DNA of 64,000 nt from an uncultured Candidatus Saccharibacteria bacterium (GTDB taxonomy: Bacteria; Patescibacteriota; Minisyncoccia; UBA6257; 1-14-0-10-44-23): the NCBI GenBank assembly GCA_964549935.1, contig CAZJVT010000001.1, positions 219,922 through 283,921 of the forward strand, given 5' to 3'. The position numbers and the translations under genes are program-made. Position 1 is the stretch's first letter, and each line of letters begins with the position of its first letter. Below the pieces are notes generated by a model. It did not search any database. It was not told the origin of the DNA and saw nothing but the letters and a program-made list of their open reading frames with translations. Positions 22,511-61,075 of this stretch are shown here, in pieces.

Positions 22511-22637
22511 CGCTTTCGCCCTCGCTGTGTCCTTGAAGCCCCGCGTCAGGGGCTTTTATAATTAAGCAGTAAGGAGCCACCCGGCGATTGCGCCTGCCTG
22601 CCGGCAGACAGGTATTCGCAAGCGGCAAGGGTGTTTC
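22511..22637. repeat. Intergenic repeat family copy A (terminator hairpin + TATAAT + CACCCGGCG..GCAAGCGGYAAGGGTGTTTC)
   Basis: About 130 bp homologous to 42651-42782 with palindromic indels. Contains the CCTGCCTGCCGGCAGACAGG near-palindrome also seen at 16707-16730. Confidence 0.45.
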
Positions 22638-22681
22638 AATAGTACTATTCCCTTATTTTTTTATTCTGGTATTCTTTTTCT

Positions 22682-23200
22682 ATGCAAAAATATATTATCT
22701 TTATCGTAGTTGCAGCTATTATCATTATCGGGGCGATGATGCTTAAGTCGGACAACAAGCCGGCGGCCGTCGTCACTGAAACGCAGACTGCCTCGTCCAC
22801 CGAGCAGACCGCGCAGGAGCCGGTAGTTTCCGGAACTGAAGTAACCAATCCAAAACCAATCACTATGAAAGACGGACTTATCATCGAAGACACCAAGATC
22901 GGTAACGGCGAAGAGGCCAAGGCCGGTATGCTCGCCAGTGTTCACTATGTCGGCACGCTTACTAACGGAACGAAGTTCGACAGCTCGCGCGATCGCGGTG
23001 AGCCGTTCCAGTTCCCGCTCGGACAGGGCTACGTCATTAAGGGTTGGGACGAAGGTGTCGTCGGTATGAAGGTCGGCGGTATCCGCAAGCTCACGATTCC
23101 GTCGGAGCTCGGTTACGGTACCAAAGGTGCCGGTAGCTCGATTCCTCCGAATGCCACGCTGAAGTTTGAAGTTGAGTTGCTTGGTCTTCGCTCGAACTAG
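22682..23200 (+). CDS. FKBP-type peptidyl-prolyl cis-trans isomerase (membrane-anchored)
   Basis: N-terminal TM helix. FKBP core [44 protein letters not shown]. Confidence 0.8.
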
Positions 23201-32484: not shown

Positions 32485-34608
32485 ATGTCTAGACAATATC
32501 CGTTAGAGAGAACTCGTAACTTTGGAATCGTCGCCCACATCGATGCGGGTAAGACGACCACGTCGGAGCGCGTTTTGTACTACACCGGTGTTTCTCACAA
32601 AATCGGTGAGGTGCACGAAGGTGATACCGTCATGGACTGGATGGAGCAGGAGCGCGAGCGTGGTATCACGATTACCTCGGCTGCGACGACCGCCTTCTGG
32701 GTCCCGACCTATGTCTCGAAAGAGGACAAGGCCAAAAACAAAGACGCCAATACCTACCGCTTCAATCTTATTGATACGCCGGGGCACATAGACTTTACCG
32801 TCGAGGTTAAGCGTTCTTTGCGCGTGCTCGATGGCGCCGTCGTCGTGTTCGATGGAGTTTCCGGCGTTGAGCCGCAGTCTGAAACCAACTGGCGTTACGC
32901 TGACGAATACAACGTTCCGCGTATTTGCTTTATTAACAAGCTCGATCGTATGGGTGCCAGCTTTGAAAAGAGCTTGCAGTCAATCGTCGACCGCTTGAAC
33001 CCAAACGCTATCGCTGCGCAGCTTCCGATCGGTTCAGAAGGCGGCTTTAGTGGTCTCATCGATTTGCTTACTCAAAAGGCCTACGCCTTTGAAGGTGATA
33101 AGGGAGAGAACATCAAAGAGATTCCAATTCCGGCGGACATGGCCGATGAGGTCAAGAAGCGCCACCACCAGCTCGTGGAAAAAATTGTTGAAAACGATGA
33201 CGTGCTGATGTCGAGCTACCTCGAAGGCAAAGTGCCTTCACTCGCGGAACTCAAGAAGGTTCTCCGTAAGGCTGTTCTCGCCGTTAAAATAATCCCGGTC
33301 TACACCGGTTCCGCTCTTAAGAACAAGGGAGTTCAGTTTGTACTCGACGCCGTCGTCGACTACTTGCCGAGCCCGCTCGACCTGCCGCCGGTTAAGGGTA
33401 TCGACCCGCACACCAACGCCGAGGTATTCCGTAAGCCTTCAGACGCCGAGCCGTTTACCGCGCTCGCGTTTAAGATTATGACGGATCCGTTCGTGGGTTC
33501 CTTAACCTTCTTCCGTGTGTACGCCGGTAGCTTGAAGCGCGGTAGCTACGTGTACAACTCGACGAAAGGTGAGATGGAGCGCGTTGGACGTATTTTGCGT
33601 ATGCACGCAAACGACCGTGAAGAAATCGAAGAGATTAACGCCGGTGATATCGGTGCCTTAGTCGGTATGAAAGACACGACGACCGGTGACACGCTCTGTG
33701 ACGAGCCGACCGCCGTTGTCCTTGAAAAGATCTCCTTCCCTGAACCGGTTATCTCTATCCGCGTTGAGCCGAAGACTAAAGCTGACCAGGAAAAGATGGG
33801 TATGGCGCTCCGCCGTCTTGCAGACGAGGATCCGACCTTCCGTGTTTCCGGTAATGCTGAAACGGGTGAGACGATTATCGCCGGTATGGGTGAGCTCCAC
33901 TTAGAAGTTCTCGTTGAGCGTATGCGCCGCGAGTTTAGCGTTGAGACAACGACCGGCCGTCCGCAGGTTTCATATAAGGAAACGATTTCCAAGAAGGCCG
34001 AAGCCGAAGGTAAGTACATCAAGCAGTCTGGAGGTCGTGGTCAGTACGGTCACGTCAAACTTCGTATCGAGCCGCTCGAGCGCGGCAAGGGCTTTGAGTT
34101 CGTCAACGAAATCAAAGGAGGTTCAATTCCGAAGGAGTTTATCGCTCCGGTTGAAAAGGGTATCGAGGAGGCTCTCACTCGCGGTATTCAGGCCGGGTAC
34201 CGAGTTATCGACGTCCGCGTCGAGCTCTACGACGGTAGCTACCACGAAGTTGACTCTTCGGAAGCCGCTTTCAAAATCGCTGCTTCAATGGGTTTCCAGG
34301 AGGCTTGTAAGATGGCTGCGCCGATTATCCTTGAGCCGATTATGAAGGTCCAGGTTATCGTCCCGACTGAATACATGGGTGACATCACCGGTGACATCAG
34401 CTCGAAGCGTGGCCGCATCGATGGCATGGGTGACCGTCCGATGGTTAAGGTTATCGACGCCTTCGTACCACTTTCCGAAATGTTCGGTTACGCGACCAAG
34501 CTTCGTTCGATGACACAGGGCCGTGGTAACTTCACGATGGAGTTCTACGCCTACGAGCCGGCTCCGGGCAACGTGACGAAGGAGATCATTGAGGGCAAGA
34601 GACAGTAA
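32485..34608 (+). CDS. fusA: Elongation factor G
   Basis: AHIDAGKTT and DTPGHIDF motifs, 707 aa, full domain set. Confidence 0.95.
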
Positions 34609-34683: not shown

Positions 34684-34882
34684 GTCCAAGGAGTCAAACT
34701 CGGCTCAAAGTTTTTACAAACACTATTCGTATGAATAGTAGTGTTAATTCAGTATTTTATATTTTCAGAAAAGTTTAGCGCAGCAGCGCAAACGCCGAGT
34801 TTGTACTACGGGATTGCTTTTCTTTTTTCGAAAGAGTAGATTCTGTTGTGTCTGCGCGTGTCGTGGACAAGGAGGAGATACG

Positions 34883-35353
34883 TTGGCGTACAAAGAGCTG
34901 CCTGTCGAGAAGGGAAGGAAGTACCTGCCGCACATCTGGAACCTGTTCTTCAAGCCGCTCGACGAACCCGACTTTTTCGTCGAACCGTGGCGCAACTGCG
35001 AGCTCGGTGATTGTGCCGAGTTTCGCGAAGACGAAGTATCGTTCTTCGTGCTCGATGCAGAGCTGGTTGCCTTCCTCGATGGCGCGAGGGAAGGGCTGCA
35101 CCTCTTCGGTGCCTACAACCAGGTCAACGTCTGCCAGATGCGAGCCCGCGGCACCGTATCACGGGTGGATGATCCGGCCGAAATCGCACGGGTCAAGAAG
35201 AGCAGGCGGGCCAGCATCACGAAGCGAGTCGGCAAGACGGTCGATGGTCTCAGAGAGGAAGAGGCGGATGCGCGACGTGTCATCATCGACAGTGGCACCC
35301 TCTTCCGCTTCTCCGTCACCTCCTACGCGCACAAGATGTACGAACGGGGGTAG
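34883..35353 (+). CDS. Cassette ORF 1: hypothetical protein (high GC; TTG start)
   Basis: AAGGAGG SD 7 nt before the TTG. GC about 62%. Shares its 65-bp leader and 45-bp 3' hairpin repeat with the next module. The alternative-frame ORF 34848-35444 is judged spurious. Confidence 0.4.
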   Translation: MAYKELPVEKGRKYLPHIWNLFFKPLDEPDFFVEPWRNCELGDCAEFREDEVSFFVLDAELVAFLDGAREGLHLFGAYNQVNVCQMRARGTVSRVDDPAEIARVKKSRRASITKRVGKTVDGLREEEADARRVIIDSGTLFRFSVTSYAHKMYERG

Positions 35354-35361
35354 CAGCAACT

Positions 35362-35406
35362 GGGCCGTAGGCCGACCGTGGAGGTCGCCCTGCGGCCCTC
35401 ACGTTT
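35362..35406 (+). repeat. 45-bp 3' hairpin repeat, copy 1
   Basis: GGGCCGTAGGCCGACCGTGGAGGTCGCCCTGCGGCCCTCACGTTT, identical to 35992-36036. Confidence 0.6.
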
Positions 35407-35486
35407 TAATATTTAAGTTTGCTTTTCTTTTTTCAAAAGAGTAGATTCTGGTTGTGTCTGCGCGTGTCGCGGGCAAGGAGGAATCG

Positions 35487-35987
35487 ATGAATCACAAGAC
35501 GTATCTCGGGTGGGTCTCGCGACTGCGCGGGTTCGCTCTGCGCAGGCCGATCGACAGGGATGACCTCAAGGACGTCCTGGAGTATCTGGCGAAGCAGCTT
35601 CCGGAGCACGAGGAGAAGATCGCGCGCGCCGAGGCGAAGACCCAGGAGTTCGAGTTCGGAGGGCAGTGCTTTGTCCCCCTCGAGCGGGACGACAGGACGG
35701 GTGTCATCGTCCTGGAGTACGCCTACGGCAATGTCTGGTCGCCTCTTCACCGGCATGGGCGGTCAACCGATCCGAGTGAGCCGGGCGAGATCGTCGACAC
35801 CTACGACGGACTTCTGCTCGACCGCCACGCCAATGGCAGCGTGATCACTCATCGTGTCGGCGACCCTTCGATCGTTCATCTGCCCGGGAGCATTCATCAG
35901 CCGCTCATCTACGGCGGATGGGTCGGGAGCTTCTGGCATCCTGTCCGAGCGGAGGACCTCGACCTCGAGAAGCTGCTCGGGGTGTAG
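35487..35987 (+). CDS. Cassette ORF 2: cupin-like hypothetical protein (high GC)
   Basis: AAGGAGG SD 5 nt before the ATG. SPLHRHG..E and PGSIHQP resemble the two cupin motifs. GC about 63%. Confidence 0.45.
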   Translation: MNHKTYLGWVSRLRGFALRRPIDRDDLKDVLEYLAKQLPEHEEKIARAEAKTQEFEFGGQCFVPLERDDRTGVIVLEYAYGNVWSPLHRHGRSTDPSEPGEIVDTYDGLLLDRHANGSVITHRVGDPSIVHLPGSIHQPLIYGGWVGSFWHPVRAEDLDLEKLLGV

Positions 35988-35991
35988 CACC

Positions 35992-36036
35992 GGGCCGTAG
36001 GCCGACCGTGGAGGTCGCCCTGCGGCCCTCACGTTT
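35992..36036 (+). repeat. 45-bp 3' hairpin repeat, copy 2
   Basis: Identical to copy 1. Confidence 0.6.
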
Positions 36037-36075
36037 CAGTTTGCTTTTGCGAATTTTCAGCGCTACACTTTCTGT

Positions 36076-36438
36076 ATGAACTTATTTTCTTTGGCTCACG
36101 CGGCTACGAGCACTTGTACGGTAAATGGTGATCCGGTTGACTGCGCGCAACTTGGCAATGCAGTAAAAGGATTCGCTGCGTTTGCTTTTATTATCCCGGC
36201 GATTTTTGGAATCGTTGGTCTCGCCCTGTTTGTCTTCTGGATTATGATGCTCGTCCATGTTGCGAAGCATCCCATCAAAGATAAAGCCCTTTGGGTTATT
36301 GTCCTTTTAGTCGGTAACGGCGTCGGTGCCATTGTATATTATTTTGCAGTTAAGCGTCATTATGACGCCATGCAAGTAGCGCCTGGGAACGTGCCGCCGA
36401 CAGCCCCGATTCCGCCGTCCGCACCTCCAGCTATTTAA
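36076..36438 (+). CDS. Small membrane protein, PLDc_N-like
   Basis: Two TM helices. ALWVIVLLVGNGVGAIVYYF resembles the phospholipase-D/nuclease N-terminal membrane domain. Confidence 0.4.
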   Translation: MNLFSLAHAATSTCTVNGDPVDCAQLGNAVKGFAAFAFIIPAIFGIVGLALFVFWIMMLVHVAKHPIKDKALWVIVLLVGNGVGAIVYYFAVKRHYDAMQVAPGNVPPTAPIPPSAPPAI

Positions 36439-36552: not shown

Positions 36553-37755
<1,203 letters not shown>

Positions 37756-37784
37756 TCTCTGCTGTTTAGCGAGATCCTTACCAT

Positions 37785-38138
37785 ATGACTGTTGCTGCAC
37801 CAAAAAAGACTGTGAAGGCCGCGGAGGTTACGAAAGAGAAGCTCCGTCTGCGCATCAAAGCGTACGACACCAAGCTTATCGACTCGTCCTGCCGTCAGAT
37901 TATTGAAGCCGCCAAGAAGCATGAGGCGACTGTCGTCGGCCCGATTCCTCTTCCGACTGAATTTAAGAAGTTCACAGTGAACCGCTCAACGTTCATCGAC
38001 AAGAACTCTCGCGAACAGTTCGAACTCCGTATCCACAAGCGCTTGATTGATATTTTGCACCCAACCCAGCAGATCATTAGCTCGCTCTCGAGCTTGAACC
38101 TGCCGGCCGGAGTAGATATCGAGATCAAGATGGTTTAA
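37785..38138 (+). CDS. rpsJ: 30S ribosomal protein S10
   Basis: LRIKAYD..LID and GPIPLPT motifs. About 15-aa N-terminal extension. Confidence 0.9.
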
Positions 38139-38158
38139 GGAGAATGATTGTATCTAGC

Positions 38159-38231
38159 AAAAGCCGCCGAAAGGCGGCTTTTGCGTTTTTGGCTCTCACG
38201 GCTCAACGGCGTACCGTTGAGCCGTTGAGGT
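38159..38231 (+). terminator. Terminator-repeat family copy 1 (hairpin + U-run, then a second 10-bp-stem hairpin)
   Basis: CAAAAGCCGCCGAAAGGCGGCTTTTGCGTTTTT then GGCTCAACGGCGTACCGTTGAGCC. Paralogous to 40958 and 41751. Confidence 0.6.
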
Positions 38232-38261
38232 TAGAAAGGCCTTCGTAGAGGCGTTTTTCTT

Positions 38262-38290
38262 TTGACCAGACGGTCAAAAAAGGATAATAT
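38262..38290 (+). promoter_or_regulatory. Sigma70-like promoter (TTGACC-N17-TAATAT)
   Basis: The -35 lies within the palindrome TTGACCAGACGGTCAA. Upstream of the 865-aa gene. Confidence 0.45.
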
Positions 38291-38339
38291 CAAGGGATAA
38301 CACCAGGCCTGAGGCCCGGTCCAATTAACCCTTATTAGT

Positions 38340-40937
38340 ATGCGTACAAACTTCAAGAAACTGATCGCGGTTTTAGTCATTAGTTTATTTGTAAGCGGGG
38401 TAGGGCAGGCTCCTGTTGCCAAGGCAACGACTTTGGCGGAGCTCCAGGCACAGCTCAACGCCTTGATCGCTCAGCTTGCGCAGATGCAGGCGGCGCAGAG
38501 CGGCAATCAAAACAGCCAGGGTAATTCCGGCAACAGTTACCGAGGCAACAGCAGCAACGGCTGCAGTTTCTCGCGTACTATTCGCATCGGTTCGATAGGT
38601 TCGGACGTGACTTGTTTGCAGGGAGTTTTAATTGAATCAGGATACTTAAAAGCGTCAGCGACGGGCTACTTTGGCGCACTCTCAAGTGCTGCCGTTCGTC
38701 AGTGGCAGGTGGAGCACGAGCTCGCTTCAACTGGTGTCTGGGGCAGTGCCGAGCGTACAGCGTATGCAGCTACTTTTGATAACGACACCAACGACGACAA
38801 CGACAATAATGGCAGTGGCTCAAACAGCAACTCCGGTAGCGGACAGATGTGTGCGCAGGTGATGCGTCAGTGCTGGAACGGTACCTATGTCGGTTACCGC
38901 CCGGGCACCTGCACCTACTACGACTGTCCGGCGTACGTCCCACCAACTACGACTCCAGCGCCGCCAAGCAGTTGGTCAGAAAGCGGTACTTTGCGCATCG
39001 CCTTGGATTCTACGAGCGTTCCAAGTTCCGTGGTACCGGGTTCTGTTGGCAATCAGGTTCTGCGTATCGTTGCAACTCCAATTTCGGGAAGCGCGCGCCT
39101 AACTGACCTGACGGTCACAGATACGATTAGCGGCGGATCCAATAATCTTTCTTCGTTCCAAAATTTCACGCTCTGGGGCGGAGTTGGCGATAGCCAGGTT
39201 GCTGGCCCTATTGCCATGACAATGAACGGCGTCAGTAATGGCACAATTAGTTTTAATCTGGCTGGGTCGGGATTACTACTGCTCGCTGGTAACAATTACA
39301 CGCTAACTATTAAAGCAGATGTTGCTACTACTAGCTCTGGTGCAGTTGCGGTTGGCTCATCGCATGTTTTCAGCGTAGCAAACTCCGGTCCAATCGCGTT
39401 TGCTACAAACGGCGTGACGAACGGTGGGCGCGACATAATCATTGGTTCAGTCGTTGGTAGCTCCATATATATCAGCAGCGGTACCAGTCAGAACGTAGCC
39501 CCGTCTGCAAGTATCAACGCAGCTTCGGGCTTCGCTAATCCAACGGTTGTCGCAGGGACAAACAATCAGCGTGTCGCGTCTTTCGTAATCACCGCTTCAA
39601 CTGCTCAAGCTATTCAAGTAGGTAGTTTGACCTTCTCTAAAACGGGTAGCGGGATTGCTCTCCAGAATCTTAAGGTGATGATTGGTGGTACCCAATTCGG
39701 GAATACGATTGCGACGGTTGGCGCAAATGTGAGCGCAGCAAGCTTCTCTAGCTACGCACCGATTTCAGTAAATGCGGGCGGTTCGCAGACCGTTGATGTG
39801 TATGCTGATGTGCTTTCGAGCGCAACTGCCGGTACCTACTATTCAGTTATTAGTTTGGTTAACTGGCAGGCAGGGGGAACAATCAGCGGTTCTGCGCTTG
39901 CTTTCCCCGGAACTGTCAGTGGTCAGAATGTTACGGTGACCGCCCAGACCGCCAGCGCACCGGGACACCTCACGCTCACGCTTGACTCGAGTACGCCGCC
40001 GGCCAAGTCGGTGGTCATGGGTTCAACTAACAACGAGGTTGCCCGCTTCCGATTCTACGCGGACAACAATGACGACTTGCGTATCACCGACCTCGTTATC
40101 AAAGATACGATTTCCGGTGGTGCGACAGGACTTGCCTCGTTCGAAAGTATGACGCTCTGGGATGGCAACACCCAGGTTGCCGGGCCGATTACGCCGACCA
40201 GCAACAGCGCAAGTTTGGCGACGATTAGCTTCTCTTTGAGCGGTAGCGGCGTCATCGTATCCCGCAACACTGCAAAGACGCTGACGCTCAAAGGGACTGT
40301 TTCGACCTTTACCTCGGGCGGTGCAGTTTCTAACTCCCAGCACGTGTTTTCGATTAATGCGAATAGTGATATTACCGTTCGCGGTGTAAATTATTCCGCC
40401 ACGCCCGTCACCGTTACCGGTGCTCCGGTTTCAGGTTACTCGATGAAGGTGCTTCGAACCTCGCAGGGAGTAACAGCTTCAGTGATTGGCTCAAGCAGCA
40501 GCCGCGTTCGCACCGCAGTGGACGATGTCGCTACGCTCAACATCACGGCTGACAGTGCCTACCAGGTTGCGCTTCAGGTGGTTAAGCTCTATATGACCGG
40601 TGGTGCGCTTGCGAATGTCTCCGGTGTTACCGTGGACTTAATCGACAGCAATACCAACACCCCGATTGGCAGCGCGACAGCGCAGACCTGCAACGCGGTT
40701 AATGCCGGCTGCACCCTGACCTTCAGCCCGAACTTTACGATTAGTGCCGGTACGACCAAGCAGATGAAGATCCGCATCAACTCCTCGTCGTTTACTAATA
40801 GCGGCGGCGCTGATGGGTTGCAGATACTGCTTAATACAACCGATGCTATCCAGATCGGCGACGGTACGGCGAACAATATCCCAGCCCTTGATTCAACGGC
40901 GGTTCCATTTATGGTCGCGCAGATTTCGTACGAATAA
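38340..40937 (+). CDS. Large secreted surface protein with a peptidoglycan-binding-like domain and T/S/G/A-rich Ig-like repeats (S-layer/adhesin-like)
   Basis: Signal peptide. Coiled-coil segment LAELQAQLNALIAQLAQMQAA. PGBD-like CLQGVLIESGYL..GYFGALSSAAVRQWQ. Long low-complexity beta-rich repeats. Confidence 0.55.
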   Translation: MRTNFKKLIAVLVISLFVSGVGQAPVAKATTLAELQAQLNALIAQLAQMQAAQSGNQNSQGNSGNSYRGNSSNGCSFSRTIRIGSIGSDVTCLQGVLIESGYLKASATGYFGALSSAAVRQWQVEHELASTGVWGSAERTAYAATFDNDTNDDNDNNGSGSNSNSGSGQMCAQVMRQCWNGTYVGYRPGTCTYYDCPAYVPPTTTPAPPSSWSESGTLRIALDSTSVPSSVVPGSVGNQVLRIVATPISGSARLTDLTVTDTISGGSNNLSSFQNFTLWGGVGDSQVAGPIAMTMNGVSNGTISFNLAGSGLLLLAGNNYTLTIKADVATTSSGAVAVGSSHVFSVANSGPIAFATNGVTNGGRDIIIGSVVGSSIYISSGTSQNVAPSASINAASGFANPTVVAGTNNQRVASFVITASTAQAIQVGSLTFSKTGSGIALQNLKVMIGGTQFGNTIATVGANVSAASFSSYAPISVNAGGSQTVDVYADVLSSATAGTYYSVISLVNWQAGGTISGSALAFPGTVSGQNVTVTAQTASAPGHLTLTLDSSTPPAKSVVMGSTNNEVARFRFYADNNDDLRITDLVIKDTISGGATGLASFESMTLWDGNTQVAGPITPTSNSASLATISFSLSGSGVIVSRNTAKTLTLKGTVSTFTSGGAVSNSQHVFSINANSDITVRGVNYSATPVTVTGAPVSGYSMKVLRTSQGVTASVIGSSSSRVRTAVDDVATLNITADSAYQVALQVVKLYMTGGALANVSGVTVDLIDSNTNTPIGSATAQTCNAVNAGCTLTFSPNFTISAGTTKQMKIRINSSSFTNSGGADGLQILLNTTDAIQIGDGTANNIPALDSTAVPFMVAQISYE

Positions 40938-40957
40938 GAGGGTAGCCAGCGAGATCC

Positions 40958-40994
40958 ACAAAAGCCGCCGCCGGGCGGCTTTTGGGTTTTTGGC
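40958..40994 (+). terminator. Terminator-repeat family copy 2 (first hairpin only)
   Basis: CAAAAGCCGCCGCCGGGCGGCTTTTGGGTTTTTGGC. Confidence 0.6.
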
Positions 40995-41034
40995 GCACTC
41001 CTGGTATAGTTTTAGTAATAACCTTTAAATTAAT

Positions 41035-41745
41035 ATGAGAAATTTAGGCGGCGGTGGTTTAGATGATATCAATCAGGCGGGATTACCGGGTGGTGAGGGC
41101 TCTGATCCAACCCTGGAGGTAAAAGTGCGAGAGATTCTTGAAAGTCTTGAGCATGAAGCCATCGGGAAAGGTTACTTCGCCCTTATTCCCAAGGCTGATC
41201 AGTCTTTTATTGATGGCATAAGTGCCGATCAAAAATCTTATTATCCGGATATGTCTGCCGAGGAGGTGCGCGAAATGATTTCACGTAACTGGCTTGGGCG
41301 AGCGCGTATTTTTGACGCTATCGCAACGGCTCGAGGATTTCGTGCGGTCCAGGAGCTCTCGGATGCTAATCCCGCAGAAGTGGCCGCCCTGACTCGTAGC
41401 GCATCGTATGTTTTTATGGATGAAAAAGTTTTCACTCCTTCGGGCGGCACACTAAATTATTTTAAGATTGCGGGACGCCATTCAAACATTGCTGATGGTA
41501 ATTCCAGCGGCGTGCAGGTTCGCGGGTCCATTGCTATCGGCAGGCGTTTGGAATTGAGTGGTGCTCCGATAAGTAGTACGACAAGTCTTCAGCAATTATT
41601 TATTCGCCACGTCGACAGAACAGGAGGTGGGAAAAGTATTCTTGATGTAAGCGCAGAGGTTCGCGATGGCACGCAGATGATCAATGAACAGACTCTTAGG
41701 AAGGTGTTAGATGCTGCGCGCAAAAATAAGGAATTGCCAGGATAA
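41035..41745 (+). CDS. Hypothetical protein
   Basis: 236 aa with no recognisable motif. Gly-rich N-terminus. Confidence 0.4.
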   Translation: MRNLGGGGLDDINQAGLPGGEGSDPTLEVKVREILESLEHEAIGKGYFALIPKADQSFIDGISADQKSYYPDMSAEEVREMISRNWLGRARIFDAIATARGFRAVQELSDANPAEVAALTRSASYVFMDEKVFTPSGGTLNYFKIAGRHSNIADGNSSGVQVRGSIAIGRRLELSGAPISSTTSLQQLFIRHVDRTGGGKSILDVSAEVRDGTQMINEQTLRKVLDAARKNKELPG

Positions 41746-41750
41746 CTTAA

Positions 41751-41824
41751 CAAAAGCCGCCGCAAGGCGGCTTTTGTGTTTTTAGCTCTCACGGCTCAAC
41801 GGTACGCCGTTGAGCCGTTGGGGA
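41751..41824 (+). terminator. Terminator-repeat family copy 3 (both hairpins)
   Basis: CAAAAGCCGCCGCAAGGCGGCTTTTGTGTTTTT then GGCTCAACGGTACGCCGTTGAGCC. Confidence 0.6.
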
Positions 41825-41842
41825 TTGGAAGGCCTATGCTTA

Positions 41843-41871
41843 TTGACTTTTTTGTACTTTAATTCTATAAT
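41843..41871 (+). promoter_or_regulatory. Sigma70 promoter (TTGACT-N17-TATAAT)
   Basis: Near-consensus hexamers upstream of the high-GC gene at 41939. Confidence 0.5.
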
Positions 41872-41938
41872 ATTCCGCATTGTCCGCGCAGTGCGGATGA
41901 CGGTTTCGGGCGTAACCCGGACCCCAAGGAGGGGAACG

Positions 41939-42547
41939 ATGAGGCTTTCAACTGATGTTCTGGTGCAGATCGTGCGCCCGCTGGTGGGGTCCAAGGACCT
42001 CGGCATGCGAGGAACCGCGATCGTGCTGGCGATGAACCCGGTGTTGGACGCGGCGCTCGACTTCTTCGGGACCCCGGCGCACAGCGGAGGTCCGGGCGAG
42101 CCGCAGCGCACGGGCTTCTATGTGAGCGTGGGAGATCAACGCAGCGGCGACGTGGTCCACACGGTTCGCTTCGGCGACATGATGGGGCCGGGCTACGACG
42201 GAGAGCGCCGACGCCGCTACGAGCGCAACGCTGCGAACAAGGTCCGGTTCGCCATCGATCGAGACGTCGAGACGAGCTGGGACATCCGGGACGACAAGGC
42301 AGATCCGCCGATCTATCCGGGTAGCGTCCGGATGATCGACTGGCACTTGGCGGTCTCGGGTCTTTCGAGCGGCCACAAGGACCAGGCGGTCGTGCTGGTG
42401 GGAGGAATGTACCTCCACGTCTGCGGGTTCTTCCTCGGTCGCGGCCCTGGAATCGGCCCGACCAAGGCCTTCGGCATCGCAGAACGGACCCAGGATCCAG
42501 AGTTCGAACCGTTCCTCGCGTTCGTCCGCTCGCGCGGGATCTTCTAG
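41939..42547 (+). CDS. High-GC hypothetical protein (202 aa)
   Basis: AAGGAGG SD 5 nt before the ATG. GC about 66%. The listed ORF starts upstream at 41810 across the promoter. Antisense ORFs 41865-42602 and 41948-42583 are judged spurious. Confidence 0.45.
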   Translation: MRLSTDVLVQIVRPLVGSKDLGMRGTAIVLAMNPVLDAALDFFGTPAHSGGPGEPQRTGFYVSVGDQRSGDVVHTVRFGDMMGPGYDGERRRRYERNAANKVRFAIDRDVETSWDIRDDKADPPIYPGSVRMIDWHLAVSGLSSGHKDQAVVLVGGMYLHVCGFFLGRGPGIGPTKAFGIAERTQDPEFEPFLAFVRSRGIF

Positions 42548-42650
42548 CGGGCACGGGCGCCTGACCGCCCAGTACATATCCAAGCCTTAAGGCGCGGTTC
42601 ATTCCGCGTGCAGCAACCCGGCCCCCGGGACGAAACGACTCGTCAGGGGG

Positions 42651-42782
42651 TCTTTCGTTTTTTGCCCTTGCTCATCCTTAAAGCACCGCGTCAGGCTTGC
42701 CCGTCTCTGGAGGGCGCTTTTATAATTGAGTAGCAAGGCGCACACCCGGCGCTTGCGAGAACGCAAGCGGTAAGGGTGTTTC
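42651..42782. repeat. Intergenic repeat family copy B
   Basis: Homologous to 22511-22637 (CCGCGTCAGG, GCTTTTATAATT, CACCCGGCG, GCAAGCGGTAAGGGTGTTTC). Confidence 0.45.
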
Positions 42783-42864
42783 CTTGATTTAATTCATTGA
42801 CAATTTTTTGCCGTGGGAGTTGAATGAGGTTGTTGACCCGTGGTGGGTCATGAAGGAGGAGCTC

Positions 42865-43299
42865 ATGGGCTTCTTGAGTAGGCTCAAGGATGCGGGTCTC
42901 GCGCTCGTCGTTGCGCTGATGTCCGTCTTCGTGTTCTGGGTCGTCGTCAGTCTCGTGAGGACGAACGTGCCGATGTCGTACTCAATGGGGATCGGCCTGC
43001 CGGCGGTCTGGCGCGGACTCGATCTGTTCATCGCGCCGATCTGGGTGCTTGCATCGAGCACCTACTACGACGTCGTTCAGCGCTTCGTCGATGACGCCAA
43101 GGCCCGCAACTTCTGGGTCGAGGGGTACATCTGGATCACGCTCGTCTCCGGAGTCGTCGCGCTCGTCTGGGGGCTGCTTCCCGGAGTCGTGATCCTGCTC
43201 GGAGTCGGGCTCGGCCTGACCCTGGTGCATGTCGTCTGGTTCCTGCTGATGTCGGGCTTCGCCCGACTGATGGAAAAGGGGATCCGCGGAATCTCGTAG
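42865..43299 (+). CDS. High-GC 4-TM membrane protein (hypothetical)
   Basis: AAGGAGG SD 5 nt before the ATG at 42865. GC about 62%. Confidence 0.45.
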   Translation: MGFLSRLKDAGLALVVALMSVFVFWVVVSLVRTNVPMSYSMGIGLPAVWRGLDLFIAPIWVLASSTYYDVVQRFVDDAKARNFWVEGYIWITLVSGVVALVWGLLPGVVILLGVGLGLTLVHVVWFLLMSGFARLMEKGIRGIS

Positions 43300-43371
43300 C
43301 GTGGGCCGCCGGCGATCATTGGGTCGCTTCGGCGGCCCTCTGATTTTGTAGAAAATAAGAAAGGGCTTGAC

Positions 43372-43493
43372 CCCCCCCACGCCAAGAGAGGAGTAAAGTA
43401 TTTTTTGTAAACATTTCTCTATTTGAGACCACCCAAATTATCTGCGCATTATTGCGTGCGGATCAGGAAAATACTCCTCTCTTGGTGTGGGGC
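43372..43493. repeat. MITE-like element with about 17-bp terminal inverted repeats CCCCACRCCAAGAGAGG, flanked by direct CTTGAC
   Basis: Left CCCCACGCCAAGAGAGG, right CCTCTCTTGGTGTGGGG. CTTGAC(C) occurs on both flanks. The TIR core is shared with 56745-56842. Confidence 0.45.
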
Positions 43494-43522
43494 TTGACCG
43501 AAAAACCGACCTCGTGTATACT
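43494..43522 (+). promoter_or_regulatory. Sigma70 promoter of the rplC...secY cluster (TTGACC-N17-TATACT)
   Basis: Good hexamers with 17-nt spacing, 128 nt upstream of rplC. Confidence 0.5.
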
Positions 43523-43649
43523 ATCCCAACGGTTAGGTATAGGTCTGCCGGACGCACAGTCCGCCATCGACCTGCAAAAACTAGTGATTCAGTCCTCAAG
43601 AGGAGCTGGCATTAGTCCAGCTTTTTTGTTTACCTAACTCAAACATTCT

Positions 43650-44084
43650 ATGACCCGCTTAGTTGGCACAAAAATGAAGATGACGAGCATGTATAAGGAC
43701 GGACGCCAGTGTGGCGTTACGCCAGTTAAGCTTTCCGAAAAAGCAGACCTCTCTCTCGTTAAGGTTGGAAGCCTCGTCATGGTTTCCGGTATTAGCAAGG
43801 GACACGGTTTTGCAGGAGGTGTGAAGCGTTGGAACTTCCGTGGAGGTCCGGCTACGCACGGTCAAAAGAACCGTCACCGCGCTCCAGGTTCAATTGGTAA
43901 CACGACACCGCAACGCGTTTTGCCTGGTCGTCACATGGCTGGTCACATGGGTATGGAGCGGATTACGAGCCGCAATATCGCTGTCATCGCTATCGACGAG
44001 GAGAAGCGCGTCGTGATGCTCAATGGTTCAGTTCCGGGTATTACCGGTATTAAGATGGAAATCCGAATCGCTGACGCGAAGTAA
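43650..44084 (+). CDS. rplC: 50S ribosomal protein L3 (shortened, 144 aa)
   Basis: GFAGGVKRWNFRGGPATHGQ..HRAPGSIG core. Lacks about 60 aa of the usual N-terminal half. Confidence 0.85.
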   Translation: MTRLVGTKMKMTSMYKDGRQCGVTPVKLSEKADLSLVKVGSLVMVSGISKGHGFAGGVKRWNFRGGPATHGQKNRHRAPGSIGNTTPQRVLPGRHMAGHMGMERITSRNIAVIAIDEEKRVVMLNGSVPGITGIKMEIRIADAK

Positions 44085-56738: not shown

Positions 56739-56744
56739 GATATA

Positions 56745-56842
56745 CCCCCACACCAAGAGATAGCGCGTTTCAATAAAGCTGGTTAGCAAGGGCTAGCGCT
56801 TTGTGTGTGGATAACAAAGTAGGGAATCTCTTGGTGTGGGGG
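56745..56842. repeat. MITE-like element with 16-bp terminal inverted repeats CCCCCACACCAAGAGA
   Basis: Left CCCCCACACCAAGAGA, right TCTCTTGGTGTGGGGG. Flanked by TATA and followed directly by TATACT. The TIR core is shared with 43372-43493. Confidence 0.45.
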
Positions 56843-56880
56843 TATACTGAAGTAAACAGTAAACTATTACATTTTTAACC

Positions 56881-59424
56881 ATGTTTCATTTTCCGACGAA
56901 AGCGGGGTTTTACAGTTTTCTTTTATTAATTGGTGCAACAGCCAGCATGTTGCTTGGTGCGTCGGTTCGGAATCTTGTTTCCGAGAGTAACACCAGAACA
57001 ACCTATCTGGGTTTGGCAGCTATGCAATTTGCAGCTCCTGCCGCAATTACGAGCGTACCATCGCAACCAACAGGCTTTATTAGTAGCGACACCCGCTTTG
57101 CGGTTGCGTCGGCCTTGCCTTCGGTGGTGCAGTTTGCCAGTGACGGCAGCGAGAAGTATGAAGTTGTTACCCAGCCAAAATTGGCAGCGGGTGATGGAGA
57201 GCACGAAGTTATTTCAGTCTTAAAAGGCGAGGCAGTTGTTTTGACGCCTTGGAAGAAGTGGGCCACTCCTGCTCCGGGCGCATCGTGGATTAGCTACAGT
57301 AAAAAGACCGGGGCGAATAAAGACGGAAATGCACGGAATAAAGGCCCGATGAACGGCACAGTTGTTCGCTTTACAAAAAATGTTGAACTTGCCGCCCCGA
57401 GCGTTTCAGGCTTGATTGCGGTGATGGCTGATGACACAGTGAAAGTTTCGGTTGACGGTAAACAGCTTTTTTCCAGCAAGAACGGGCAGCGCGGGCTGTC
57501 ACAAACTCCGAAAATCGTAACAGTTCCAAAGCTTACGGCCGGCAAGCATAAGTTCACGTTCGACGTTGCGCAGTACGATCAGGCAGACGCGCGTCCTTTC
57601 GGCGTGACATTTAACGGTTATCTGATGGGTGCGCCCGCAGCGAGCGAACAGAAAGTTGCCGGCGGCACTTCTATGATAAAGCTTGGAACGCTTGCTTTCT
57701 TGGGTAACGGCAGTGAGCAGACACTGACGTATCTTAAAGTATCTATTAATCACCTTGATCCGACTTTTACGAGCGTCGGGACAATTCCCGCCGGCGAGAT
57801 TAAAAATATTCAACTGATTGATGAATCGACTGGAATCGTCGTGAAGGCGATCCCTAACTATCGCGTCACTTCGGACACGACTTGGTGTGCTTATGCCGGT
57901 AGTGCAAACAAGTATGGCTTAAGCTGTAACTTTGGCAGCACGCAGAAACCGATCAGCTACACCTTCCCGGCTGCGCCGCTTGGTACGCCGCGAGTAATTT
58001 CGTTGTTTGCCGACGTGGCGACAACCGGGAAAACGTACACGTTGCAGGCGAGCTTTGAGGGTGGAGTCGACAATCTTCGCAGTATCGCTCCGGCTTCAAA
58101 AGAAGAGGCTCGCTATAATACTCCGGCTGTAGCAGGCGCAGCAATCACGGTTTCAGCTTCAACCCCGACAGGCGAGACAACTGATACTTCAGGGGGCACG
58201 ACGAGTGGCGCATCGGGGAACGGGACTACGCCGGCTGCTGCTCCGACGCAGTGCCAGCAGTACCGTACAGCCTCGCCGGAAACCTATGATGATTGTATAG
58301 AAAACCCTGCGGCGTATCCTTCTGCCGGTTCGAGTGGCTCCACCGGAAGCAGCGGTTCAACGGGCGGCATAGTTAGCAACGACAGCAAAAATGACAACCA
58401 CGGTGCGACTAACTCCACCGGAAGCGTCAGCGGTAGTTCTTCGGCGGGCGGTAGCGGAGCTCTCTCGGTGACACCTCCTCCGCTTTCTCTCCCAATTTCT
58501 TATCTGACTATTGCCACTGATTCTGCGACTCCGGTCGGCAAGAAGATTTACGGAGGTAATGCGGGGATTCCTCTTCTTAAGGTTCGTTTAAGTGTTGACG
58601 CGGCCCCGGTTGGCGTTAAGATAACGCAGCTTAGGTTTGTTGATAACGTGCAGGATGCCGGCGGTCAGCCGACATTCGCGAAGTTTACGCTTTACCGGAA
58701 CGGCGGAGTGGTAGGAGATAATTCGACGTATGTTATTAATGAGAAACCGGGTATTGCTACGATTCTCTTTAAGACGCCGCTCGAAATTCAGTCTGCCGGT
58801 GTTACGACGCTCGAGCTTCGCGGCACAGTCCTTAGTTTTCCGGAAAAAATTGGTGCCGGCTCGGTGCACGCCTTTAGTCTTGCCGCCGCCGATGTTGTTG
58901 CCACTAATGCTAATGTAAATGGCTCCGCGCTCGGTAATCCTTTTACAGCCTACCGAACTTCAATTGATCTCCCAACGCCGGTCGCCATCGGGCCGGGGGT
59001 GAGCCGTGTTCGGACGAGCGTCGACGAGGTTGTCTCTGTGCCGTTTAAAAACGGCGGAGCGATTCCGGCAAAAATTACCAGTGTCAAATTCAAGATCAGC
59101 GGTTCGGCGCTTGTCGGCGTCACTCCGTTTGTCGTTGATTTGCTAAGCGATACAAATTCCTCGTTTGGTGCGCAGAGCTGCACGCCGGTTAACGGCACTT
59201 GCTACGTTGAATTTTCGCTCGGCAATCTTCAGCTTGCCGCCGGACAGACGCGGTCAGTTCGTATGCGTGTCAATTCGAGCAAGTTTAAGAATGATACCGC
59301 CGCGCTTGATACCTTTAGCGTCATGATAGAAAGTGGCGCGGATGTAACCTACAACGACGGAGTTTCGACGCTCAATCTGGACATCCCGTCTCCAAAGACG
59401 ATCGTTTCGTTGATCTATCAATAG
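56881..59424 (+). CDS. Large secreted surface protein (847 aa) with an S/G/T-rich linker
   Basis: Signal peptide/TM at the N-terminus. Central TGETTDTSGGTTSGASGNGTT..SSGSTGSSGSTGG linker. Beta-rich repeat domains. Confidence 0.5.
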   Translation: MFHFPTKAGFYSFLLLIGATASMLLGASVRNLVSESNTRTTYLGLAAMQFAAPAAITSVPSQPTGFISSDTRFAVASALPSVVQFASDGSEKYEVVTQPKLAAGDGEHEVISVLKGEAVVLTPWKKWATPAPGASWISYSKKTGANKDGNARNKGPMNGTVVRFTKNVELAAPSVSGLIAVMADDTVKVSVDGKQLFSSKNGQRGLSQTPKIVTVPKLTAGKHKFTFDVAQYDQADARPFGVTFNGYLMGAPAASEQKVAGGTSMIKLGTLAFLGNGSEQTLTYLKVSINHLDPTFTSVGTIPAGEIKNIQLIDESTGIVVKAIPNYRVTSDTTWCAYAGSANKYGLSCNFGSTQKPISYTFPAAPLGTPRVISLFADVATTGKTYTLQASFEGGVDNLRSIAPASKEEARYNTPAVAGAAITVSASTPTGETTDTSGGTTSGASGNGTTPAAAPTQCQQYRTASPETYDDCIENPAAYPSAGSSGSTGSSGSTGGIVSNDSKNDNHGATNSTGSVSGSSSAGGSGALSVTPPPLSLPISYLTIATDSATPVGKKIYGGNAGIPLLKVRLSVDAAPVGVKITQLRFVDNVQDAGGQPTFAKFTLYRNGGVVGDNSTYVINEKPGIATILFKTPLEIQSAGVTTLELRGTVLSFPEKIGAGSVHAFSLAAADVVATNANVNGSALGNPFTAYRTSIDLPTPVAIGPGVSRVRTSVDEVVSVPFKNGGAIPAKITSVKFKISGSALVGVTPFVVDLLSDTNSSFGAQSCTPVNGTCYVEFSLGNLQLAAGQTRSVRMRVNSSKFKNDTAALDTFSVMIESGADVTYNDGVSTLNLDIPSPKTIVSLIYQ

Positions 59425-60182: not shown

Positions 60183-60295
60183 AGTACTTGTCTCATGAAA
60201 TCTCGGTTAAAGGTCCCGTTGGGGCTACTGGGGTGGAGTGGGCATGTAACGCTAGCTTGGGCTTAACGGCCTGGGTTAGGTGGAGGGAGAGAGTC

Positions 60296-61075
60296 ATGGT
60301 CAATCGCAGGAAGTCGTGCATCGCGTCGATCGCGATGGTTCTCGGATTCGTCTTCGGCTGGTGGGGGTTCTCCCCCGACGCCAAGGCCGGCGAGGGCCAG
60401 CTCTTCATCGGCTCGCGGCCGGTGGCGGAAGCGGGCGGCGGCTCGGCCAGCGCCGAGGCGTACCAGAAGTCGGAGGCCAAATCCCGGCGCATCGTGTTCA
60501 ACAACAACACGGGAAGCGAGGCGACCTTCGACCTCACGATCCGCGGCGTCAAGATGACGGGCGCCAGCTTCTATTGGCAGCGCGCCAACACGACGATCAA
60601 GGCGGGCGACGGCTTCTTCAAGGTCCTGCCGCCCGGCGAGTACGCGGGCAGCGCCCGGGATCTCGACGGGAATGTCGTTTCGAAGAAGAAGTTCGTGGTG
60701 ACTTCGAAGCGCGACTACGTGGTGCCGATCGGCACGGCGGTCACTCCGCCGACGCCGACTGGGACGGGGATCCTCCTCGTCAACAACACCGGCGTGACGT
60801 GGAACGTGCTGTTCACGCTCAGCAGTCCGTCGTACCTCGGCGGGGGTGAGCTCGGCTACACCTTCGCAAGTCAGGTTCCGAACCTGGCGATCGCCTCGGC
60901 GCTTCCGCCGACGGGCGATCTCGTCTCGTACACCATCAAGGTGACGACGATGACGACCCCAGCGGTGACGATCACTGCGGGCCCCGGAACGGGAGTCACG
61001 GCGTCGGACGGGAAGACCCGGACGATCGTGCTGGTGAGAAACGCGGATGGAACTTACGGGGTGAAACCCCTCTAG
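60296..61075 (+). CDS. High-GC secreted hypothetical protein (259 aa)
   Basis: GGAGGGAG SD 6 nt before the ATG. Signal peptide. GC about 65%. The listed ORF starts at 60188 across the leader. Confidence 0.45.
   Translation: MVNRRKSCIASIAMVLGFVFGWWGFSPDAKAGEGQLFIGSRPVAEAGGGSASAEAYQKSEAKSRRIVFNNNTGSEATFDLTIRGVKMTGASFYWQRANTTIKAGDGFFKVLPPGEYAGSARDLDGNVVSKKKFVVTSKRDYVVPIGTAVTPPTPTGTGILLVNNTGVTWNVLFTLSSPSYLGGGELGYTFASQVPNLAIASALPPTGDLVSYTIKVTTMTTPAVTITAGPGTGVTASDGKTRTIVLVRNADGTYGVKPL

Follow-up and report, generated by a model that had tools for sequence, protein, structure and literature searches.

Accessory genes between rpsJ and rplC point to a probable turnover hotspot inside the S10 cluster of a Saccharibacteria-like bacterium

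The S10-spc cluster of ribosomal protein genes is taken as the model example of conserved gene order and supplies phylogenetic markers for genomes of the candidate phyla radiation (CPR). In the 64,000-nucleotide (nt) stretch of DNA from an uncultured Candidatus Saccharibacteria bacterium that is analyzed here (GenBank assembly GCA_964549935.1, contig CAZJVT010000001.1, positions 219,922 to 283,921; the window), rpsJ, encoding S10, and rplC, encoding uL3, are separated by 5,511 nt holding four open reading frames (ORFs) on the plus strand, which raises the question of how genes came to lie at this junction and what related genomes carry there. An earlier reading made from the letters of the window (the sequence-only reading) had proposed four interposed genes, and the ORFs, the Pfam matches, and the length of the gap confirm this. 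The rpsJ-rplC junction of this Saccharibacteria-like lineage is probably a transcriptionally insulated, permissive slot that serves as a hotspot of accessory-gene turnover. Two conserved transcription signals, the terminator hairpin after rpsJ (hairpin 1, or H1) and the rplC promoter with its leader, delimit a segment that differs in every close relative.

Slot content in related genomes

The left conserved flank is rpsJ (37785-38138, plus strand; Pfam Ribosomal_S10, E = 3e-33), the final gene of a fusA-tuf-rpsJ unit, and the gene on the right is rplC (43650-44084, plus strand; Pfam Ribosomal_L3, E = 5.5e-14). A gap of >1.5 kb between the two was found in just 3 of the 137 related loci that carry both genes, and the split arrangement is unusual, though not unique. 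The nearest public relatives by S10 are metagenome-assembled genomes labelled Candidatus Saccharibacteria, with L002 at the top; the S10 protein of the window is 96% identical to that of L002, 95% to that of L083, 86% to that of L164, 80% to that of L084, and 75 to 77% to those of L003 and L085. Synteny with L002 runs from the tuf promoter to position 38189, just past the T-run of H1, at 88% identity, and is picked up again, at 80% identity, from 43487, seven bases short of the -35 box of the rplC promoter; the immediate flanks on the two sides are 85 to 88% identical. By this comparison the variable segment spans 38190-43486, and H1, the rpsJ terminator, is the left limit of variability.

What lies between these limits changes from genome to genome. 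The slot of L002 holds a single gene, encoding an aldo-keto reductase of 304 amino acids (aa). In L083, rpsJ is followed by extra hairpins, H1, an insert of ~170 nt with a 29-bp inverted repeat, a homologue of the second gene in the window slot (hyp236), another H1, and a pair of unrelated ORFs (293 and 143 aa), both high in GC. The order in L164 is rpsJ, H1, a low-GC gene of 324 aa on the minus strand, a tRNA-Cys gene (9785-9858), a homologue of the third gene in the window slot (gc202), a 144-aa ORF, an inverted repeat, and the rplC promoter. After rpsJ, L084 has an unrelated terminator and another gene, and in L003 and L085 rpsJ and rplC lie ~110 nt apart and the slot is empty. The same flanks thus enclose different content in the window, L002, L083, L164, and L084, and none in L003 and L085. 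An identical insertion in relatives, the pattern that the sequence-only reading had named as speaking against modular insertion, was looked for and not found; each of the five close relatives has slot content of its own. Content varies within the genus, and one step beyond it the slot is empty.

Scans of the window slot ORFs against Pfam, NCBIfam, PHROGs, and PADLOC turned up no integrase, transposase, phage, or defence family; they returned PG_binding_1, weak endolysin-type matches over the same peptidoglycan-binding region, and weak noise. The cargo of relatives (the aldo-keto reductase and gc173 of L002 and the ORFs of L071, L083, and L164), scanned against fewer libraries, likewise yielded no integrase or transposase. 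The variable segment is thus free of recognizable mobility genes in these scans. A genomic island of the tRNA/integrase type was considered and rejected, since the window has no tRNA and no integrase.

Assembly support for the junctions

If the contig had been mis-joined at a repeat, some of the four genes might not truly lie between rpsJ and rplC. Independent contigs, drawn from three sister samples, are 100% identical to the window over the stretches that they cover: L001 over 37521-38859, L082 (a Logan contig of sister sample SRR14271332) over 38160 to ~42757, and L170 over 42726-43874. Three junctions are confirmed in this way, that is, all save the one at ~42757; the doubt is limited to this join, which rests on the window assembly and on synteny in relatives. 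Past ~42757, L082 (4599-5499) runs into the upstream region of the gene for ribosomal protein S1 (rpsA) and not into the fourth slot gene (gc144). The ends of L082 and L170, the latter starting at 42726, fall in one repeated promoter/hairpin element. A de Bruijn-graph mis-join in L082 is the simplest reading because the divergence point lies inside this repeated element, and a real rearrangement between element copies is also possible. L002 and L164 both show a contiguous rpsJ-slot-rplC arrangement, and the order in L164 of gc202 homologue, one more cassette, and rplC is the same as that in the window. That the arrangement in the window is an assembly artefact is therefore highly improbable.

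The rpsJ terminator and the age of the first two slot genes

The sequence-only reading had described a composite terminator that recurs after rpsJ, in partial form after the first inserted gene, and again after the second, and this description holds as an 88-nt repeat plus a lone H1. Copy a of the composite module (38155-38242, plus strand) comprises hairpin H1a (stem 38157-38184, followed by a T-run) and the palindrome H2a (38198-38225, loop CGTA), and copy c (41748-41835, plus strand) comprises H1c (stem 41750-41777) and H2c (41791-41818, loop TACG); the two copies are 86% identical. H1b (40958-40994, plus strand) stands without H2, and its 3' half and T-run run into the promoter of hyp236. 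In a pattern search of the 64 kb, H1 occurred three times and H2 twice, all within this locus, where shuffled sequences gave an expectation of 0.00. The three H1 copies have stems of 11 to 12 bp with 7 to 8 G-C pairs, a 4-nt loop, and then GTTTTTGGC; their folding z scores (DNA fold) are -8.2, -3.5, and -7.6 for H1a, H1b, and H1c, and they lie 18 to 22 nt or less past a stop codon. All three have the make-up of intrinsic (Rho-independent) terminators. H2, a perfect palindrome with a 12-bp stem and no T-run, does not. In Rfam, searches of the whole window at the gathering threshold and of 38100-43700 at E <= 1 gave only subthreshold small RNA terminator matches onto H1.

H1a recurs after rpsJ in L002 with an identical flank, CTAGCAAAAGCC, and an identical GAAA loop, and H1 is kept 3' of rpsJ in four genomes (the window, L002, L083, and L164). 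This distribution overturns a view of the terminator as an imported module; because it is conserved after rpsJ in relatives, with the same flank and loop in L002, H1 is the terminator native to rpsJ. The outermost stem pair is G-C in H1a and A-T in H1c, a compensatory change that fits with the hairpin being under selection. The orthology of H1 copies was judged by flanking sequence and not by the loop. Loop type (GAAA versus GCAA) was tried as proof of copy orthology and dropped as too weak, given that it is a one-nucleotide difference and that the copy after rpsJ in L164 is also of the GCAA type. The 88-nt repeats were likewise rejected as attL/attR sites, since relatives have counterparts of both H1 positions and there is no recombinase.

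H2 is missing from all 170 other loci and was seen in this genome alone, and an IMG/VR scan for it gave no match. The loops of H2a (38210-38213) and H2c (41803-41806) are exact reverse complements of each other, CGTA versus TACG, on 12-bp stems that are 100% identical, which suggests inversion of the hairpin loop through template switching or recombination between the arms.

The first slot gene (38340-40937, plus strand) encodes an 865-aa secreted or surface protein with a signal-peptide-like N terminus and a PG_binding_1 domain (Pfam, E = 1e-8). Promoter-like sites were scored as matches to the consensus -35 and -10 hexamers, out of 12, and the site upstream of this gene, TTGACC-17-TAATAT (38262-38290, plus strand), scores 9/12 and is a consensus match only. 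The protein is a member of a Patescibacteria family of large peptidoglycan-binding proteins; its top homologues, 42 to 46% identical, lie at unrelated loci in other Patescibacteria, and in the rpsJ-rplC slot the gene occurs in this genome only. The second gene, hyp236 (41035-41745, plus strand), encodes a 236-aa hypothetical protein of no family, for which Pfam, NCBIfam, PHROGs, and PADLOC gave no match and AlphaFold2 (AF2) a poor model (predicted local distance difference test [pLDDT] score of 42). Its sole homologue found, P0003, is 57% identical and lies directly 3' of rpsJ in L083, where it is trailed by an H1 with the same GCAA loop as H1c. An extended -10 of hyp236, TGGTATAGT (41002-41010, plus strand), was read by eye from the sequence and carries no tool score; L083 has TGATATAGT at the equivalent position. 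The flank downstream of H1b, GGCTTTTG.GTTTTTGGC...TATAGT, is homologous to the sequence upstream of the L083 homologue. The proposal that each inserted gene has its own near-consensus promoter is thus borne out for three of the four genes and fails for hyp236, which has the extended -10 alone and no -35/-10 pair.

The order rpsJ, H1, hyp236, H1 predates the split of the window and L083 species because the H1 after hyp236, the 3' half of the upstream H1, the T-run, and the extended -10 are all homologous in L083. As the H1 after hyp236 also follows the homologue in L083, that duplication is older than the species split. The 865-aa gene, by the same comparison, is a later addition between rpsJ-H1 and hyp236 that left H1 duplicated. 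The duplication, of 37 nt, stands on either side of the 865-aa gene, and in L083 18 nt of the 3' half of H1 are repeated around the independent ~170-nt insert.

The rplC promoter, its leader, and a MITE-like element

The right conserved flank is the promoter of the rplC operon, TTGACC-17-TATACT (43494-43522, plus strand; 10/12). Its -35, with the C that precedes it, its 17-nt spacing, and its -10 do not vary among the window, L002, and L164. The promoter is older than the present cargo because the latter two genomes carry other cargo. The sequence-only reading had supposed that the insertion led to a re-promotion of the rplC cluster; promoter and leader are conserved with other cargo in L002 and L164, and this supposition was given up.

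The 5' leader of rplC is ~125 nt long (43523-43649, plus strand). It starts with a conserved TCCCAACGGTTAG and continues through a variable hairpin and CAAAAACTAGT to a terminator-like hairpin with a U-run (43598-43629), which stops ~20 nt before the start codon. The fold has a z score of -4.1, and equivalents are found in L002 (11331-11460) and L164 (11399-11531); 22 pairs are predicted, 4 of them with compensatory changes in an alignment of three sequences only. No Rfam match was found at the gathering threshold or at E <= 1. By analogy with the E. coli S10 leader, this leader could be a candidate L4-responsive attenuator that is specific to this CPR lineage.

A miniature inverted-repeat transposable element (MITE)-like element of 118 nt (43375-43492, no strand assigned; fold z = -6.0) lies at the promoter. 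Its 21-bp terminal inverted repeats (43375-43395 and 43472-43492) are 95% complementary. CTTGA flanks it at both ends (43366-43370 and 43493-43497), which places the element within the -35 box of the rplC promoter, whose hexamer the duplicated CTTGA regenerates. A second copy of the family lies at 56741-56846 of the window, flanked by TATA, upstream of an 847-aa ORF (56881-59424), and a third (L002, 8547-8668) has TTGA flanks and occupies the -35 box of that genome's tuf promoter. In all three copies the 21-nt arms are 95 to 100% complementary, with the common core CCCC(C)ACRCCAASAGAG, and the target appears duplicated as CTTGA, TTGA, or TATA, with a boundary uncertain by 1 to 2 nt owing to the C/G-runs. 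The copies are small (106 to 126 nt), free of ORFs, and dispersed over three loci in two genomes (the 64 kb of the window plus L002). An IMG/VR scan with the element gave no match. The inverted repeats, the flanking duplications, and the three copies lend support to the MITE-like identity that had been proposed from the letters.

Relatives carry other long inverted repeats, with arms of 29 to 31 nt and unrelated in sequence, after the last cassette or inside H1 (L083, 1894-2005 and 4519-4637; L164, 11262-11356). They are conserved in structure and not in sequence.

High-GC ORFans and recurrent modules

The two distal slot genes are very rich in GC. The gene gc202 (41939-42547, plus strand) encodes a 202-aa ORFan and has a GC content of 0.654, with values of 0.67, 0.46, and 0.82 at codon positions 1, 2, and 3 (GC1, GC2, and GC3). 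It is preceded by the promoter-like site TTGACT-17-TATAAT (41843-41871, plus strand; 11/12) and followed by a weak terminator-like hairpin with a T-run (42630-42666, plus strand; hairpin 42637-42652) that matches H1 at 62%. Upstream of gc144 is the promoter with a 5' hairpin (42697-42790, plus strand), TTGCCC-18-TATAAT (10/12) and then CACCC-GGCGCTTGCG..CGCAAGCGG-GGGTG. gc144 itself (42865-43299, plus strand; GC 0.62, GC3 0.86) encodes a 144-aa membrane-like ORFan, called at 144 aa in L170 also, with no family match in Pfam, NCBIfam, PHROGs, or PADLOC. It ends in a hairpin-terminator (43298-43352, plus strand) of the GGGCCG..GGTCGC..GCGGCCC-TC..TTT family (covariance model R1, 55.8 bits, E = 1e-16). 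The pattern of GC1, GC2, and GC3 marks the plus-strand frames as coding in both ORFs, and gc202 is called with the same start in L082. As to the bounding of the whole island by a terminator family, which the sequence-only reading had proposed, the rpsJ terminator does form the left limit, but these right-hand genes are bounded by the promoter/hairpin element, the cassette terminator, and the MITE-like element.

An exhaustive HMMER search of 1.84 billion representative proteins gave one real homologue of gc202, P0004 (gc189; E = 2e-19, ~40% identical), which likewise lies between rpsJ and rplC, in L164, and has a GC content of 0.625 and a GC3 of 0.78 in a locus with a GC content of 0.478. A word-index homology search matched gc202 to itself only. 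Its AF2 model (pLDDT 81, predicted template modelling score 0.83) had no PDB match at E <= 0.001 in Foldseek. Nothing was found in blastn searches of the 5.5 kb or tblastn searches of three high-GC ORFs against phage and plasmid collections, and exact-protein look-ups with rplC, up166, and up120 found no contigs. A simple recent transfer from a sampled actinobacterial host is not supported for gc202, because its sole homologue is equally GC rich in a 48%-GC genome and no phage or plasmid matches were found.

Similar GC-rich genes are held in the slots of relatives, and in the window the high-GC coding signature is found in four ORFs, gc202, gc144, up156 (34883-35353), and up166 (35487-35987), with GC3 values of 0.76 to 0.86 versus 0.42 to 0.66 in neighbours. 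Six cassette ORFs in four genomes end in one ~45-nt two-level hairpin-terminator, GGGCCG..CCGACC..GGTCGC..GCGGCCC-TC..TTT (window 35357-35412, 35987-36042, and 43298-43352; L002 8476-8532; L083 4466-4517; L164 10631-10690; alignment A8, from which model R1 derives). The cassette ORFs are mutually unrelated, save for gc202 and gc189 of L164, and the members of the hairpin family all lie in fusA-tuf or rpsJ-rplC spacers. Model R1 had no match beyond its six training members, except weak generic ones on H1, and no further copy in the 64 kb.

The fusA and tuf genes of the window are also split (34814-36042), by two tandem high-GC ORFan cassettes that encode unrelated proteins; their 66-nt 5' modules (promoter, 5' untranslated region, and ribosome-binding site) are 94 to 97% identical and their 48-nt 3' modules 98% identical. 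A conserved PLDc_N membrane gene (36076-36438) comes after these cassettes, and the corresponding spacer of L002 (7880-8532) has a different high-GC ORF. The promoter/hairpin element, CACCC-GGCG.TTG[variable hairpin]CAAGCGG-GGGTG, stands upstream of three unrelated genes, namely, gc144 (42697-42790), an FKBP-like ORF at 22682-23200 (element at ~22560-22650), and rpsA (element at 4530-4640 of L082), and compensatory changes are seen in its inner stem. A portable promoter that brings along an mRNA-stabilizing hairpin is one possible identity of the element, a small RNA another. Two other GC-rich genes of the window (5829-6539 and 60188-61075; GC 0.64, GC3 0.76 to 0.85), one sigma-factor-like and one secreted-like, have strong consensus promoters and lack the cassette 3' hairpin.

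Explanations for the slot

A hotspot of accessory-gene turnover between insulated transcription units is the explanation that we consider probable. The window slot consists of four independent promoter-ORF-terminator units and a MITE, and these units differ in age: hyp236 is common to L083, the 865-aa gene is found here only, and the distal high-GC ORFans are swapped between species. With transcription already broken at the junction, inserts would spare the expression of the ribosomal proteins and so be tolerated. Genes could be gained or replaced by homologous recombination, with DNA taken up and then exchanged through the conserved flanks, or else by recombination through short modules that recur, be it H1, the 3' hairpin of the cassettes, the promoter/hairpin element, or the MITE. 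The first of these routes is proposed because natural competence, together with allelic exchange by recombination, is reported for cultured Saccharibacteria (PMC10633639). Terminator sequence has been duplicated at two independent insertion points, at the 865-aa gene of the window and at the insert of L083, and the duplicated terminators may be partly footprints of such events and partly kept since each unit needs one. The island genes (those for a surface protein and a membrane protein, and the ORFans) are probably host-interaction or niche genes. The stepwise insertion by terminator recombination that had been suggested from the letters therefore survives in its first half, with hyp236 shared with L083 and the 865-aa gene present here only; recombination at the terminator is plausible, as a conjecture about mechanism for which no intermediate or recombinase was found.

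Several observations weigh against the hotspot explanation. Neither an intermediate of recombination nor a presence/absence polymorphism at strain level nor a donor copy was seen. The comparison covers four to five relatives, some of them on short contigs, L083 ending before rplC. The only discrepancy within the population, that of L082 at ~42757, may be an assembly mis-join. At 26 to 37 nt, H1 is marginal for RecA-dependent recombination, and its copies may be nothing more than local duplications that were kept and play no part in the capture of genes. In addition, the lasting high GC3 in both gc202-family genes is not accounted for by a simple hotspot model.

Among the other explanations, the composite terminator may itself be an active recombination module (H1 plus H2), each gene having been captured at a copy, for example through Campbell-type integration of an H1-bearing circle that duplicates H1. 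This is possible but doubtful. H1 brackets both the 865-aa gene and hyp236, the 88-nt repeat brackets the two together, neither H1 nor H2 has a copy elsewhere in the 64 kb, the independent insert of L083 is flanked by the 18-nt repeat of the H1 3' half, and H1 is the left limit of variability in all relatives. Yet the H1 of rpsJ is native and the one after hyp236 is common to L083, which makes them old copies and not footprints of recent capture; H2, absent from the 170 other loci, is not required for turnover in relatives; other modules delimit gc202 and gc144; and the cargo of L002, L164, and L084 came without duplication of H1. The homology is also short (26 to 37 nt), and neither a circle nor a junction variant came to light. 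This mechanism is compatible with the duplications but leaves the distal cassettes and the cargo of relatives unaccounted for. An outside origin of the high-GC genes is another candidate: gc202, gc144, and the fusA-tuf cassettes could be recent, unameliorated transfers from high-GC donors such as the actinobacterial hosts of Saccharibacteria or the phages and plasmids of these hosts. Their GC3 of 0.76 to 0.86 against 0.42 to 0.66 in neighbours and the contrast between the ORFs and their AT-rich promoters and flanks would fit such an origin, as would the life of cultured Saccharibacteria on Actinobacteria (PMC10633639). We hold it to be unlikely, given that the only gc202 homologue among the 1.84 billion representatives sits in the same slot of a related CPR genome and is also GC rich, that the phage and plasmid collections gave no matches, and that a lineage-specific 3' hairpin on six cassettes points to circulation within the lineage and not to single arrivals.

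The same hairpins invite a reading as integron-like, site-specific cassettes, in which the 3' hairpins or the long inverted repeats would act as attC-like sites for a recombinase encoded elsewhere. Unrelated tandem ORFs each with a conserved imperfect 3' hairpin are indeed found in four genomes, and inverted repeats conserved in structure and not in sequence follow the last cassette of each relative. Such a system is nonetheless very unlikely: no integrase or recombinase is in or beside any slot, the hairpins on inspection have no attC core sites (RYYYAAC/GTTRRRY) and are each followed by a T-run, as in terminators, the cassettes bear their own promoters, no Rfam match was found, and the covariance model finds no more copies in the window. 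A further idea, to which we give little weight, is that the slot is one site of a lineage-specific, recombinase-free exchange of cassettes in competent Saccharibacteria. GC-rich ORFans set between standard modules (promoter plus 5' hairpin, 3' hairpin-terminator, and often a MITE or inverted repeat) would be shuffled by short-homology recombination into spacers by the strongest housekeeping promoters (fusA-tuf and rpsJ-rplC), and their high GC3 would be kept by recombination, for example by GC-biased gene conversion, and not inherited from a donor.

Comparison with described systems

The turnover hotspot proposed here has its closest counterpart in the minimal mobile elements (MMEs) of Neisseria and, more broadly, in chromosomal integration hotspots that lie between conserved core genes. 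In MMEs a site between conserved genes holds different whole-gene cassettes in each strain, carries no mobility genes, and is presumably exchanged by transformation and recombination in the flanks in a naturally competent organism. Similarly, the rpsJ-rplC slot holds different whole genes in each species and has no mobility genes of its own, and it appears to work like an MME or hotspot in the two features that sequence can address. Unlike in MMEs (Saunders & Snyder 2002, as cited in PMC1538595), the flanks are the rpsJ terminator and the rplC promoter, within what is normally the most conserved bacterial gene cluster; the variation is compared between species and not strains, and exchange in this lineage is presumed. 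The slot cassettes also carry repeated terminator and promoter modules, and several high-GC ORFans share a 3' hairpin.

The separation of the two ribosomal protein genes has a parallel of its own. The gene order around the slot is fusA (32485-34608), tuf (36553-37755), and rpsJ, with rplD, rplW, and rplB after rplC; almost every gene of the window is on the plus strand, the mean GC is 0.52, and the window has the look of a CPR/Patescibacteria genome. uL3 is a short form of 144 aa, 83% identical to its L164 counterpart, and it is also short in L002, L164, and L003. Cyanobacteria and plastids have rps10 in their str operon (rps12-rps7-fus-tufA-rps10), with the rpl3 cluster as a unit of its own. 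The arrangement here resembles theirs in that rpsJ is attached to tuf and rplC stands apart with its own promoter, but both units stay neighbours, with the gap filled by variable genes, and in L003 and L085 they are still ~110 nt apart. Compared by eye with a typical bacterial L3 of ~210 aa, the uL3 of the window presumably lacks ~65 internal aa. In Escherichia coli, the leader of the S10 operon mediates transcription attenuation by L4 and translational control. The rplC leader is likewise predicted to be structured, with a terminator-like hairpin and U-run just upstream of an operon encoding L4; unlike in E. coli, the operon starts at rplC and not at rpsJ, no Rfam family matches, and three sequences are at hand. 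The distribution of S10-type ribosomal leaders has been surveyed (PMC3616713), and a small uL3 without an internal region is already known from some CPR bacteria (PMC9297842).

The smaller elements of the slot can be compared in the same way. The closest described analogue in behaviour to the MITE-like element of the window is CREE, Neisseria's Correia repeat enclosed element. CREE are flanked by a TA duplication. Like CREE and other bacterial MITEs, the window element is small (106 to 126 nt) and noncoding, with terminal inverted repeats of 17 to 21 bp, short direct repeats at its flanks, and a number of copies that lie beside or within promoters, but its sequence is unrelated, the flanks are of 4 to 5 bp (CTTGA, TTGA, and TATA), and two of the three copies lie in a -35 hexamer regenerated by the duplication. 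CREE have been described as creating promoters and as yielding substrates for RNase III (PMC2649163). With integrons and clusters of attC sites lacking integron integrases (CALINs), the slot shares tandem unrelated ORFs each followed by a conserved imperfect hairpin; it differs in the absence of an integrase and of attC core motifs, in the cassettes' own promoters, and in hairpins that are terminator-like. Inspection of alignment A8 and of the inverted-repeat elements showed no attC core motifs, and in place of promoterless cassettes beside an IntI the slot has ORFs with their own promoter-like sites and no recombinase. Integron identity was rejected on these three counts, namely, no attC motifs, no integrase, and individually promoted cassettes.

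Implications

The main phenomenon is familiar, and if the hotspot explanation is the whole story, the locus is an instructive, unsurprising case of it. What is worth recording is its place inside the S10 cluster, the candidate leader, the MITE that targets promoters, and the GC-rich cassettes with a shared 3' hairpin. The hotspot shows the true operon limits in this lineage: the upstream unit closes with the rpsJ terminator, and the downstream one opens with the rplC promoter and its candidate attenuator leader. The slot would be a natural neutral landing site for the engineering of Saccharibacteria, which are now transformable. It also points to fast-evolving surface, membrane, and ORFan genes beside the strongest promoters as candidates for epibiont-host interaction, and high-GC ORFan cassettes with a common 3' hairpin could show how gene novelty circulates in ultra-small genomes.

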